Below are positions 1 through 32,764 of a stretch of 39,133 bases of DNA, one piece after another. The notes under the pieces are model-generated. The model did no database searches. It was not told the origin of the DNA and worked only from the letters and a program-made list of their open reading frames with translations. Both the position numbers and the translations under genes were made by a program. The stretch's first letter is position 1, and each line of letters begins with the position of its first letter. The DNA is from Escherichia phage vB_EcoP-22664BS1, in sequence record MZ234009.1, one strand, 5' to 3'.

Positions 1-3000
1 ATGCAGGAACGAGAGGAGCGCTCTACGTGGTTCGGTTTCGGTGCGGCTACAGAAGCTGAAGTGAAGAACTCTATGGTCGGCGTGGCTATCCGCGCTGGTC
101 AGACCGAGGACTCACTTGATGTCATTGGCGATGTGTTCAACCCGACCCGCTGGAACAACCATAAGTGGTCTCGTGAGGAGTTGGACCAGATTCGTAACGC
201 TGGGGTTCTGCCTCAGTATTACGGGGTCATTACTGGTGGCTCCCCTCAGAACCTGACCGAGCTTATTAACTTTGCGCTTGAGAACCAGAAGTTGGACCAA
301 GAGAAGGCCAAGGCTGGGACTGGTGCTCAACTGGCGGCTGGTGTGATTGGTGCTGGCGTGGACCCTCTGACCTACGTTCCTATTGCTGGGCAGGTAGGTA
401 AAGGTGGGAAGCTAGTCAACAAGATGTTCACTGTGGCTGCTCAGTCTGGTGCTCTGGCTGGGGCATCCGAGATTGCTCGAACCTCAGTTGCTGGTGGGGA
501 CGCTCATGTGGCTGAGGCAATTATGGGCGGTGCTCTCTTCGGTGGGGGAATGACAGCTATCGGGGACGCTATCGGCAAGGCCTTAGGCAAGTCAACCAAC
601 GAGTTCGCCGGACCAGCCACACGTCTGGAAGCCCGTGAGACTGCACGTAATGTTGATGGTCAGGACCTGTCGCGTATGCCAATCCGTGAAGGAGAGGAGA
701 CCTTTAGTCATCAAGGTGTTAAGTTCGCAGACGTTCCGAACGAGCCGGGTAGTGTACGACTGGAAGATGGTTCAATCCTGATTGGTGAGAATCCTCTGAA
801 CCCTAAGACACGTAAAGTCTTTGACGAAGTGATTGAGCCTGAACGTGCCGCTGCTGGTGTGAACCTTGGTGGGCTGACTGAGATTGGCCTGAAGCTGCTT
901 CGGTCCGAGAACCCTGAGATTCGTGGAGTAGCTGCTGACTTAGTACGTTCACCGACTGGTATGCAGTCTGGGGCCTCAGGTAAAATAGGGACAACTGCGT
1001 CAGACGTATTCGAGAGACTTCGTGCTGTGGACCATCGGTTCTACAATGACATCGACGATGCGGTTACTGAGGCACTAAAGGACCCGTACTTCCAGACAGC
1101 ATTCTGGCGAGACTCTGGCGCATTCCGTCAAGACATCTATCAGCGCGTGTCTATGGCTATCGAAGATGGTAGCGGAAACCTGAAGGCTGAATTGACTCCG
1201 GGAGAACTGAAAGTCTATGACCTGCTGAAGAACCAGTTTGACGCCAAGCGTGAGATGATGGAGAACCCAGCTATGTTTGGTCGCCCAGACGCTCAGTCTA
1301 TCTTTCCGGGTAGCCGCTTCAAGGGAACATACGTCCCGCATGTGTATAGCAACCAGATGAAGGAGCTGTACATCAAGGAGCTTGGGAGTCCAGAGGCACT
1401 ACAGGAGGCCATCAAGAAGTCATGGTTGACCAGCTATGCGTCTCGACCTGAAGTCAAGAAACGTGTGGACGAGGAACTCTTAGAGGCTGACCCTACGTTG
1501 ACTCCAGAAGGACTTGCGGCTGCGGTCGATAAGTACGCCAACGATAAGGCTTATGGTATCTCTCACACCGAGCAGTTCGAGCGTTCATCCGTAATGGAAG
1601 AGAACATCAATGGTCTGGTGGGTCTGGAGAACAACAGCTTCCTTGAGGCTCGTAACCTGTTCGATAGCGATATGTCAATCGTCCTACCTAACGGTCAGAC
1701 CTTCAGTGTCAACAACCTGCGTGAGTGGGACATGGACAAGATTGTCCCGGCCTACAACCGTCGAGTTAATGGCGATATTGCTATCATGGCTGGTACAGGC
1801 AAGACCACGAAGGACATGAAGGACTTGGTTGAGACCCTGATGAACAAGGCTGGGGATGACGGTAAGTTGAAAGGTGAAGTATCTACCTTACGTGACACTT
1901 TGAAGATTCTAACTGGTCGTGCTCGACGTGATGGTGCTGATGATGCGGCCTTCGCTACCGTGATGCGCACAATGACAGACCTATCGTTCTTCGCTAAGAA
2001 TGCCTACATGGGTGTTCAGAACTTAACGGAGATTGGTGGTATGCTGGCTCGTGGTAACGTTCGTGCAATGCTTCATGGAGTCCCAATTTTCCGTGACCTA
2101 GCCTTCCGTAACAAGAAGGTTGGGGCCTCAGAGATTAAGGACCTGCACAATGTTATCTTCGGTAAGGAACTGGATGACTCAATCCGTCCGTCTAAACAGG
2201 ATGTCATTGACCGTCTGCGATCTTACAGTGACCTCGGTCGTGGTACAGCTACAGCTCTGGGGACTGCCAAGTATTACACTGGCGAACTTGCAGTACGCTC
2301 TCCGTTCACTAAAGTCCTCAACGGTACGACCAACTACCTGTTAGATGCTGGACGTCAGGGCTTCCTGTCTGACATCGTGGAGCATAGCCTGACTGGTAGT
2401 AAGCGTAAGTTCGATGACCGCTGGCTGAAGACCGCTGGTATCTCTGACGAGCAGTGGAAGGGCATTAAGTCCCTAATCCGTGAGTCAGTGACTCGTGGTC
2501 CAGACGGGAAGTACACCATCAAGGATAAGAAGGCGTTCAGTCAGGACCCAAGGGCTATGGACCTCTGGCGTATGGGTGACACCATCGCTGATGAGACCCT
2601 GCTCCGCCCCCACAAGCTGAGCAACATGGACGCCAAGGCTTATGGTCCGATAGCGAAGACTGTCTTGCAGTTTAAGAACTTCGTTATCAAGTCTATCAAC
2701 GGTCGAACCATGCGTACCTTCTACAATGCCACCAAGAACAACCGAGCTATGGACGCTGCGCTGTCAACGGTTATGTCTATGGGTCTGGCTGGAATGTACT
2801 ACATGGCTCAGGCGCACATAAAGGCTTACGCTATGCAGGACGGTCGTGACCGAGAGTATCTGAAGCAAGCCCTTAACCCAACAATGATTGGCTATGCGGC
2901 GCTGTCCCGTAGCTCCCACTTAGGTGGTCCTCTTGGGGTCGCCAACATTCTGGGTGGAATCGCTGGGTATGAGGACACTAAGATGCTCCGCTCGTCAATC

Positions 3001-10963: not shown

Positions 10964-11191
10964 ATGAACACAATCACTGGTGCCATAACCAAAGGTTTTC
11001 GAGCAATTTTCGGTGAAACGCAAGAAGTATGCACCAATCATAAATTCGTACTTTCTTGCGTAGCAGGTGACGAGTTTGACGGGTTCGATAAACTGGTGGT
11101 TTGCGACCATTGCGGACAAGAGGCTATCCAACACTCAAACGGTAAATTTGAATTAATAGACGATAGCCTTACAGAAGGAGACGGCGAGTAA
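10964..11191 (+). CDS. Early small protein with four Cys (C-x8-C...C-x2-C), putative zinc ribbon
   Basis: ORF track; RBS gagggaag; cysteine pattern in translation. Confidence 0.5.
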   Translation: MNTITGAITKGFRAIFGETQEVCTNHKFVLSCVAGDEFDGFDKLVVCDHCGQEAIQHSNGKFELIDDSLTEGDGE

Positions 11192-30373: not shown

Positions 30374-30396
30374 ACTAAACTATCACTATAGGGAGA
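30374..30396 (+). promoter_or_regulatory. Phage RNAP promoter (phi10-like), full consensus
   Basis: tgactaaactatcactatagggagacc. Confidence 0.75.
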
Positions 30397-30498
30397 CCAA
30401 GAGACAGACTCAAGGTTTCCCTATTACTTCAGTCCATACGGATTGGGCATACAGTAAGTAATAAACTTTATCTTTCAATTGAATAGGAGAATTATCAT

Positions 30499-31548
30499 AT
30501 GGCAAACGTTCCGGGTCAGAAAGTTGGTACAGACCAAGGTAAAGGCAAATCTGGTTCCGACGCTCTGGCGTTGTTCCTGAAGGTCTTTGCTGGCGAAGTC
30601 CTGACAGCATTCACTCGCCGCTCTGTAACTGCTGACAAGCATATTGTCCGTACCATTCAGAACGGTAAGTCTGCTCAGTTCCCGGTCATGGGTCGCACCT
30701 CTGGTGTGTATCTGGCTCCGGGTGAGCGACTGTCCGATAAGCGTAAAGGTATCAAACATACCGAGAAAGTGATTACCATTGATGGTCTGCTGACTGCCGA
30801 TGTGATGATTTTCGACATTGAAGACGCGATGAACCACTATGACGTGGCTGGCGAGTACTCCAACCAGTTGGGCGAAGCTCTGGCTATCGCTGCCGATGGT
30901 GCGGTACTGGCTGAGATGGCTATTCTGTGTAACCTACCGGCTGCATCTGATGAAAACATCGCTGGTCTTGGCAAAGCGTCTGTGCTGAAAGTTGGTACTA
31001 AAGCAGACCTGAACACTCCGGCTAAGCTGGGTGAAGCAATCATCGGTCAACTGACCATTGCTCGTGCGAAGCTGACATCCAACTACGTTCCTGCTGGCGA
31101 CCGTTACTTCTACACCACGCCGGACAACTACTCTGCAATCCTCGCGGCTCTGATGCCGAACGCTGCTAACTATGCTGCGCTGATTGACCCAGAGACTGGT
31201 AACATCCGTAACGTAATGGGCTTCGTGGTTGTTGAAGTTCCACACTTGACTCAGGGTGGTGCTGGGGAAACTCGTGGTGCCGATGGTATCACTATTGCGA
31301 CTGGTCAGAAGCACGCCTTCCCAGCTACTGCTACTGGTGATGTTAAAGTTGCTCTGGACAACGTTGTGGGCCTGTTCTCTCACCGTTCTGCTGTAGGTAC
31401 TGTTAAGCTGCGTGACTTGGCGCTGGAACGTGACCGTGACGTCGATGCTCAGGGCGACCTGATTGTTGGTAAGTACGCTATGGGTCACGGTGGTCTGCGT
31501 CCAGAAGCAGCAGGCGCACTGGTTTTCACAGCGGCGTCAGCGGGTTAA
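30499..31548 (+). CDS. 10: Major capsid protein (gp10A)
   Basis: Near-identity with T7 gp10A over long stretches (KHTEKVITIDGLLTADV, ALMPNAANYAALIDPE, HRSAVGTVKLRDLALER, YAMGHGGLRPEAAGA). Confidence 0.97.
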   Translation: MANVPGQKVGTDQGKGKSGSDALALFLKVFAGEVLTAFTRRSVTADKHIVRTIQNGKSAQFPVMGRTSGVYLAPGERLSDKRKGIKHTEKVITIDGLLTADVMIFDIEDAMNHYDVAGEYSNQLGEALAIAADGAVLAEMAILCNLPAASDENIAGLGKASVLKVGTKADLNTPAKLGEAIIGQLTIARAKLTSNYVPAGDRYFYTTPDNYSAILAALMPNAANYAALIDPETGNIRNVMGFVVVEVPHLTQGGAGETRGADGITIATGQKHAFPATATGDVKVALDNVVGLFSHRSAVGTVKLRDLALERDRDVDAQGDLIVGKYAMGHGGLRPEAAGALVFTAASAG

Positions 31549-31811
31549 CGACCCTTAAGGCCCTCTCTACAGAGGGTCCTACCTTAGAGACGTATAGTTC
31601 TACGGTGGGAACCAGCCTGAAGGTTGACTTCCCTGAGCTTTCAGATGTGACCGATTGGTCGCTGCTTGAGGTGACTACGCCTGATGGTGTTAGCTACTCC
31701 CGTAGAACCAACAGTCTCTACTTCAAGGCCACCTCTGGCGTGGAAGGTCTCGTGATTGTTGGGTATGACTGGACGCCTGTGCGTTCCTTCAACGTATCTT
31801 TCACAAACTAA
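30499..31811 (+). CDS. 10: Predicted minor capsid protein 10B made by -1 ribosomal frameshift at GGTTTTC (31521..31527), extending about 94 codons to the stop at 31809..31811
   Basis: Hand translation of 31527..31605 in the -1 frame shows no stop, and that frame continues into track ORF 31605..31811; heptamer position matches the known T7 10A/10B frameshift region. Confidence 0.55.
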
Positions 31812-31814
31812 TTG

Positions 31815-31858
31815 AAACCCCTTGGGTGCCTTCGGGTGCTTGAGGGGTTTTTTTTCTT
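31815..31858 (+). terminator. Intrinsic terminator (T-phi-like) after the capsid gene
   Basis: aaccccttgggtgccttcgggtgcttgaggggtttttttt: GC-rich hairpin plus T8 tract, resembling T7 T-phi. Confidence 0.75.
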
Positions 31859-31970
31859 AAGGAGGGACTATGGTCCTTATTTACACAGGGTTAGCACTAT
31901 TCGTCTTATTCTGGGCGTACCTGCTGTCCAGCTCACCGTCTAGCGCCTATGACCGTTAAGGAGTAAACCT

Positions 31971-32537
31971 ATGGCTCAATACATTACACTGAATGCTAAC
32001 GATGACTTAGATGCCATCAACGATATGTTAGCAGCTATCGGTGAACCAGCAGTCCTACAGCTTGACGAAGGTAACGCTGACGTCTCGAACGCTCAACGTA
32101 TCCTGCATCGTGTCAATCGTCAGGTCCAAGCTAAAGGCTGGAACTTTAACATCAACGAAGCTGCTGTCCTGACACCTGATGTCCAAGACAATAGGATTCG
32201 ATTCCTGCCGTCTTACCTTCGGGTCATGACTGCTGGTGCTACCAGTTACTACAGCAACATGGGGGGCTATCTCTATGACCTGTCCACTCAGTCCACGACC
32301 TTCACTGGACCAATTACAGTCGAACTGGTGGAGATGAAACCGTTCGCTGAGATGCCTGTAGTATTCCGTGACTACATCGTTACCAAGGCCAGCCGTGAGT
32401 TCAACGCTAAGTTCTTCGGTAGCCCAGAGTCTGAACTGTACCTTCGTGAGCAGGAAGCAGAACTCTATCAGCAGGTCATGGAATACGAGATGGATACTGG
32501 TCGCTACAACATGATGTCAGACATCGGGAGGGACTAA
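31971..32537 (+). CDS. 11: Tail tubular protein A (gp11)
   Basis: Colinear with T7 gp11 (NAQRILH.VNRQVQAKGWNFNI.E, EMP..FR.YIVTKASR.FN..FFG.PE, EYEMD.G.YNM). Confidence 0.9.
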   Translation: MAQYITLNANDDLDAINDMLAAIGEPAVLQLDEGNADVSNAQRILHRVNRQVQAKGWNFNINEAAVLTPDVQDNRIRFLPSYLRVMTAGATSYYSNMGGYLYDLSTQSTTFTGPITVELVEMKPFAEMPVVFRDYIVTKASREFNAKFFGSPESELYLREQEAELYQQVMEYEMDTGRYNMMSDIGRD

Positions 32538-32764
32538 TGGCTAGTCACAACCTGAAGATTCACCGCCAGCACTTTGGTCCGGTACAACTAGGTCTAAAGA
32601 CAGCAGAGCTGAGACTTAACGACCGGGACTTTAAGGTTGGCGACTGGCTTATCCTGAATGAGTGGGACAACGGGTATACTGGACAACAGGTAGCGCGTAA
32701 GGTTGTCCACATTGCTGACGTTGGTGAGATCGCTGAGGGATATGTCCTAATGAGTATGATTTAA
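32537..32764 (+). CDS. DUF3850/ASCH-like small protein (75 aa) inserted between tail tube genes 11 and 12
   Basis: ATGA overlap with gp11 stop; motif H.LKI....F..V..G.KT.E.R.NDRDF.VGD.L.L.EW....YTG matches my memory of the DUF3850 consensus. Confidence 0.6.
   Translation: MASHNLKIHRQHFGPVQLGLKTAELRLNDRDFKVGDWLILNEWDNGYTGQQVARKVVHIADVGEIAEGYVLMSMI

Follow-up and report, generated by a model that had tools for sequence, protein, structure and literature searches.

A probable T7-type −1 frameshift and a predicted Ig-like extension of the capsid protein in Escherichia phage vB_EcoP-22664BS1

The capsid gene and its second reading frame

The window, the whole 39,133-nucleotide stretch of DNA analysed here (Escherichia phage vB_EcoP-22664BS1; MZ234009.1), belongs to Kayfunavirus and is a K1F-like relative of T7 (T7 subfamily Studiervirinae); between 30400 and 31900 it shares 99.7% identity with Escherichia phage vB_EcoP-101118UKE1 and with many other Kayfunavirus genomes. 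Gene 10A (30499..31548, + strand, as are all of the gene 10 and terminator features below) is a zero-frame ORF for a major capsid protein of 349 aa (36.3 kDa), with a Shine-Dalgarno sequence, AGGAG (30485..30489), read from the sequence 9 nt 5' of the ATG at 30499. Based on its match to the Pfam family Gp10A-like (PF21703; E 1.2e-104), the protein is a homologue of T7 gp10A; the T7 10A chain 2xvr is likewise homologous (E 9.2e-145), and residues 1–344 closely match a solved capsid chain (9vvq; E 1.6e-213). Upstream of the gene, a T7-type late promoter-like sequence (ACTAAACTATCACTATAGGGAGA) can be read at 30374..30396, the position of the T7 phi10 promoter.

Near the end of 10A, where the first-pass annotation had reported a GGTTTTC, the slippery heptamer G GTT TTC is present at 31521..31527 and encodes Val342-Phe343, with the same heptamer and phase as T7. 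The context in the 10A frame is CT-G GTT TTC (X XXY YYZ phase), and the zero frame stops 18 nt later, ending in ...VFTAASAG* with the stop codon at 31546..31548. In the −1 frame no stop occurs between 31473 and the TAA at 31809..31811, which reproduces the earlier claim of an open frame from the heptamer to that stop; this frame supplies an extension of 94 codons plus the TAA (31527..31811) that forms part of an identical joined CDS annotated in Escherichia phage Peacock. The resulting 10B (30499..31527 joined to 31527..31811) has 437 aa (343 + 94; 46.0 kDa). An addition of about 94 residues had been proposed, which is correct for the codons that follow the slipped Phe, while 10B exceeds 10A by 88 residues (9.7 kDa). 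For a slip at the heptamer, the junction predicted from the sequence is ...PEAAGALVFHSGVSGLTTLK or ...VFHSGVSGLTTLK, and a junction peptide of 10B would be (K)YAMGHGGLRPEAAGALVFHSGVSGLTTLK.

The intrinsic terminator that had been described straight after the 10B stop is found there, with its hairpin beginning 2 nt 3' of the stop. A terminator scan places this T7 Tphi-like element at 31814..31858, with a 17-bp G+C-rich stem (31814..31851) and a T-run to 31858. The stem is identical to that of K1F and contains AACCCCTTGGG; the AACCCCTTGGG and CTTGAGGGGTTTTT elements are common to T7 Tphi. Between the terminator and gene 11 lies a 29-aa hydrophobic ORF (MVLIYTGLALFVLFWAYLLSSSPSSAYDR; 31870..31959) with a strong Shine-Dalgarno sequence (AAGGAGG), which is annotated as 'hypothetical' in close relatives and is absent from K1F. 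A 75-aa ORF (32537..32764) lies between genes 11 and 12, and one relative has an ORF in the same position that bears the annotation 'protein of unknown function DUF3850'.

The number of heptamers in the window was rejected as evidence for frameshifting, as GGTTTTC occurs at chance level (2 copies vs 4.05 expected from shuffles). The other copy (10994..11000) lies inside a 75-aa ORF (10964..11191) in the non-shifty phase GGT TTT C, by which it was ruled out as a frameshift site. An open frame of this length is infrequent by chance, with a probability of (61/64)^94 = 0.011 for 94 stop-free codons and 390 of 20,000 shuffles of the extension free of an in-frame stop (~1–2%). A survey of −1 open frames at the ends of other ORFs was contaminated by nested off-frame ORFs and only its median (8 codons) was used. 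The main support for the frameshift is the position, phase, and conservation of the heptamer in 67 loci, not the heptamer alone.

RNA structure downstream of the slip site

A canonical −1 frameshift signal with a proximal stimulator was sought in the window and rejected. No hairpin or pseudoknot occurs 5–9 nt 3' of the heptamer, the nearest beginning at least 29 nt downstream, and no Shine-Dalgarno-like GGAG, GAGG, or AGGA is present in the 20 nt 5' of the heptamer. A candidate hairpin (31557..31580; core GGCCCUCU / AGAGGGUC, loop CUAC) was predicted by folding at least 29 nt 3' of the heptamer, but a function for it was not supported: the 75–80 nt 3' of the heptamer in the window are no more stably folded than shuffles (z −1.3 to −1.4), and the 10-bp model of the hairpin shows no covariation among 12 close relatives. 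A search against Rfam returned no family at the gathering score. In T7, the CCCC of the terminator, >200 nt downstream, contributes to frameshifting according to a review. The terminator of the window has the AACCCC at least 282 nt 3' of the heptamer, with CCCC at 31818..31821.

In other groups of phages that carry the same extension domain (see below), strong hairpins are predicted 19–31 nt after the heptamer (z −3.9 in Przondovirus, −4.3 in Ningirsuvirus, −3.1 in Pektosvirus, and −2.5 to −3.5 in a second subgroup of the Kayfunavirus). The hairpin of Przondovirus and Ningirsuvirus is an 18-bp bulged structure that starts 19 nt after the slip site, located at 1421..1463 in locus L006 and in the same place in 30 other loci (z −3.9 to −4.3). 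Across these loci, 98.7% of cells are paired and two pairs are compensatory (A-U/G-C and C-G/U-A); the hairpin overlaps linker codons, so that Val/Thr changes co-vary with Pro/Ser changes. Its distance from the heptamer is too great for a classical stimulator. As a shared homologous element it was rejected, as a covariance model of the Przondovirus hairpin had no match in the window or in K1F, T7, and the other subgroups. The distant hairpins of the other groups are treated as a lead and not as part of the signal in the window.

Conservation of the two-frame arrangement

A set of 67 loci with the extension, including the window, was assembled from annotated phage records and IMG/VR contigs. 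NGTTTTC is present in the same phase in all of these loci (63 GGTTTTC, three CGTTTTC, and one AGTTTTC), and the capsid gene invariably ends in ...GALVF, with the 10A stop 9–18 nt beyond the heptamer. The extension occupies the −1 frame throughout the set, and no stop interrupts it from the heptamer to the domain even though the linkers vary from group to group in both length and sequence. Both codons of the heptamer, GTT and TTC, are invariant among 52 distinct sequences. This synonymous invariance was downgraded as strong evidence, as the neighbouring CAG, GAC, CAC, and CTG codons are equally invariant, and it could partly reflect the codon bias of a highly expressed gene. Beyond the 67 loci, a tblastn search with the 94-residue query found the extension in 454 phage records, and it is conserved at 40–50% amino acid identity across the Kayfunavirus, Przondovirus (Klebsiella), Caroctavirus, Pektosvirus, and Ningirsuvirus.

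Selection was assessed as pN/pS from Nei-Gojobori counts for the subgroup of the window (n = 16) and for a Przondovirus/Ningirsuvirus group (n = 42). The domain has a pN/pS of 0.23 in the −1 frame vs 1.5–2.3 in the other two frames, the linker has values of 0.32–0.40 in the −1 frame, and the pattern holds independently in both groups, indicating from the sequence comparison that purifying selection acts on the −1 frame and not on the other two.

These patterns bear on whether the extension is expressed through frameshifting at all. The −1 ORF could be a decaying remnant, or an indel in the assembly could have split one capsid gene of 437 aa, and the lack of a canonical stimulator in the window and a truncated domain in one relative would agree with a locus at which no meaningful frameshifting occurs. 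Decay is disfavoured by the pN/pS of 0.23 and a confident predicted fold, and a sequencing error at the heptamer, raised as a caveat at first pass, is ruled out by the same two-frame layout in 67 loci with 10A stops at several different positions, making an absence of frameshifting scarcely credible. The truncation is a natural deletion in locus L021 (IMGVR_UViG_2974604219_000001; 1495..1780), where the extension is cut after approximately residue 53 of the Ig-like domain and then runs in frame into a homologue of the small hydrophobic ORF. Because the deletion truncates the domain, it suggests that the Ig-like domain is probably dispensable.

The same loci can be set against the possibility that the downstream ORF is an independent small gene, either 'gene 10.1' or a 'minor capsid protein' in its own right, with its own start such as the GTG at 31605. 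This is how most GenBank records treat it, calling a separate CDS of 68–87 aa, and PHROGs keeps the extension as the stand-alone family phrog_7473. We consider such a gene very unlikely, as the GTG at 31605 is the only candidate start in the window and lacks any Shine-Dalgarno sequence within 20 nt, in contrast to the AGGAG or AAGGAG of genes 10, 11, and 12, and the first predicted beta-strand of the domain (residues 22–26) is upstream of this GTG. Among the relatives no start codon for an independent gene is conserved, the starts chosen by gene callers for a stand-alone ORF vary widely (products of 49–87 aa), and both the coding constraint and the open frame reach upstream through the linker to the heptamer in 67/67 loci.

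A real change of frame might also be reached by other routes, either of which would bring the same domain in frame. One is transcriptional slippage on the run of four T, a run far shorter than the lengths that give efficient slippage by RNA polymerase. The other is a P-site slip at the 10A stop, with GCG GGU UAA read as GGG and a junction of ...TAASAG-LTTLK, i.e., ...VFTAASAGLTTLK; the G GGU UAA context for this is present in the window and the hairpin at 31557 is located 8 nt beyond the 10A stop. The sequence around the stop varies, with GCC UAA in Przondovirus and a distance of 9–18 nt between heptamer and stop, while the heptamer is kept in 67/67 loci, and the shift in T7 maps to the overlapping Phe codons according to later papers that cite Condron et al. 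1991. Taken together, the two routes have only a slim chance of being correct, and programmed −1 ribosomal frameshifting at the heptamer, of the type known from T7 gene 10, is very probably the mechanism at this locus.

A predicted Ig-like domain in the extension

The extension has two predicted parts. Extension residues 1–21 (31527..31589) form a linker that is predicted to be disordered (AlphaFold2 pLDDT <50 for residues 1–18) and that varies in sequence between phage groups, and residues 22–94 (31590..31808) form a predicted Ig-like beta-sandwich domain. The AlphaFold2 model, built from a 36-sequence alignment, has the disordered residues 1–18 followed by a seven-strand beta-sandwich with a block-mean pLDDT of ~90, and this predicted structure is a beta-sandwich of the 70–90 residues that define bacterial and phage Ig-like domains. 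Residues that are invariant within the family cluster in VTDWS and RRTNxLYFK.

By sequence, the extension matches the PHROG family phrog_7473 ('unknown function'; E 3e-35), and a Pfam search of the extension returned no Ig-like family (Big_1, Big_2, Big_3, I-set, or fn3), with one spurious match at E 0.13. By structure, the best PDB match of the domain in Foldseek is the C-terminal domain of lambda gpV (2l04), and a library of viral structures gave a single strong match, to the Pectobacterium phage PP81 'Minor capsid protein'. The name 'structural protein with Ig domain' is already in use for the ORF in one Klebsiella phage record. When 1.84 billion cluster representatives were searched with a profile, 12 proteins were found, the few long ones being multi-repeat Big_2, BACON, or Big_1 proteins with weak scores. 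Because the profile matches were limited to these 12 and the long proteins among them were weak multi-repeat matches, the modelled domain is assigned to a narrow and divergent Ig-like family whose strong matches are confined to this position in T7-like phages.

Small C-terminal beta-sandwich domains that are added through a −1 frameshift and displayed sub-stoichiometrically are a feature of lambda gpV-type systems, and the arrangement predicted for the window is alike. Unlike the domains of that type, the domain of the window matches no Big_2 or other Pfam Ig family. The addition of Ig-like domains to phage structural proteins by frameshifting, including the Big_2 fold at the C-terminus of lambda gpV and Hoc-type decorations, is said to have been described by Fraser et al. 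in 2006.

Relation to T7, K1F, and other phages

The first-pass annotation held that the locus mirrors T7 10A/10B with a longer extension, of which the first part stands. The capsid gene is homologous to that of T7, the GGTTTTC heptamer is identical, shares its phase, and lies close to the 10A stop (18 nt away in the window, 9 nt in T7), and the extension of T7, like that of the window, ends just 5' of a Tphi-type terminator with AACCCCTTGGG. For T7 gene 10, the reference case, in which tandem −1 slippage is established, a review gives X_XX as G_GU, and the −1 frameshift is attributed to Condron, Atkins and Gesteland 1991 as cited in later papers. The second part does not stand, as the extension of the window is unrelated to that of T7 and not a lengthened version of it: the T7 extension has 56 low-complexity codons, whereas that of the window has 94 codons with a predicted Ig-like domain, the distance from slip to stop is 282 nt in the window vs 168 nt in T7, and no BLASTP alignment at E ≤ 100 was found between the extension of the window and those of T7 or K1F. 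This mismatch bears on the cargo added to the capsid protein and not on how the recoding works.

K1F, the type species of the same genus, has the same heptamer and a near-identical terminator, yet its extension (48 codons) is homologous to that of T7 (E 1e-11) and not to that of the window. The K1F and window sequences are near-identical up to GGTTTTCA, diverge immediately after, and rejoin at AACTAATTGAAACCCC. The K1F-type tail is present in 35 records, compared with 454 for the Ig-like type. Because K1F and the window are near-identical on both flanks and have unrelated extensions, the segment between the slip site and the terminator looks, from these sequences, like a replaceable, exchangeable cassette. 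A further-reaching and distinctly doubtful reading is that this is an exchangeable display cassette, in which conserved flanks would let relatives swap a T7-type tail for an Ig-like domain, the copy number would be set by the efficiency of the frameshift, and several lineages would tune it with a distant hairpin 19–31 nt 3' of the heptamer. Were this true, the distant hairpin, which covaries in Przondovirus, would regulate either −1 frameshifting or 10A termination in a non-canonical way.

Homologous extensions that are joined to gene 10 have been annotated before. In Citrobacter phage CR8 (HG818824), 10B has the same heptamer and phase and an extension with 43/94 identical residues, and in Peacock (MK903279; 98% identical) the minor capsid protein has the same heptamer and phase and an extension with 88/94 identical residues; both differ from the window in sequence only. 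The Peacock record annotates the joined CDS as 'minor capsid protein', citing CR8, and the CR8 record (2014) attributes 10B to a −1 internal frameshift at 'tttt' and mentions 'matches in mass spectrometry analysis', in a note that does not place peptides in the extension. Mass spectrometry of Kvp1 found junction-side peptides that support a shift at TTTTCA. For the long 10B of Przondovirus or Kayfunavirus, nothing specific on mass spectrometry or cryo-EM was found in the literature. The frameshift is thus very probably real but ordinary, already known in kind and in this lineage. The predicted Ig-like fold of the extension and its alternation with a T7-type tail within one genus may not have been described in the literature searched, and both fit a known general pattern.

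Proposed expression and role of 10B

For the preferred reading, a T7-type ribosomal frameshift, the proposed course of events begins with a majority of the ribosomes on the capsid mRNA terminating at 31546..31548 to produce 10A. A minority would slip back one base with tRNA-Val and tRNA-Phe on G GUU UUC (31521..31527), the A-site tRNA-Phe re-pairing from UUC to UUU and the P-site tRNA-Val from GUU to GGU, and would then read 94 codons of the −1 frame to the TAA at 31809, yielding 10B with 437 aa. Such a protein would combine the whole 10A capsid fold with a flexible linker of ~20 residues and a C-terminal Ig-like beta-sandwich of ~73 residues, and would co-assemble with 10A to leave sub-stoichiometric Ig-like domains tethered outside the head, where they would probably act as a weak adhesion module. 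By analogy with T7, Kvp1, CR8, and K1F, we infer that slippage takes place at this heptamer with a frequency that may be of the ~10% order of T7, that 10B enters the capsid, and that the domain has the role suggested.

By the same kind of analogy, surface display of the extension is plausible because K1F virions with GFP fused to the 10B C-terminus fluoresce (K1F g10b::gfp), which indicates that this C-terminus tolerates GFP, and K1F engineering papers display on the 10B C-terminus, supporting its exposure. For phage engineering, the predicted presence of a folded domain and flexible linker at the natural 10B C-terminus suggests that this site tolerates display, and adhesion behaviour could change if the Ig-like domain were replaced. 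For annotation, most of the 454 records give the extension an ORF of its own, labelled 'hypothetical protein' or 'minor capsid protein', that should be joined to gene 10 through the frameshift.

Within gene 10 and its extension, the window differs from its closest relative (MZ234021) at five positions (30988, 31291, 31554, 31751, and 31770), and four of the five differences are non-synonymous, two in 10A (E164K and A265T) and two in the extension (F10L and G82W). The two extension substitutions are private to the window. Extension residue 82, Trp in the window, is Gly in >90% of the family and falls in a predicted beta-turn.
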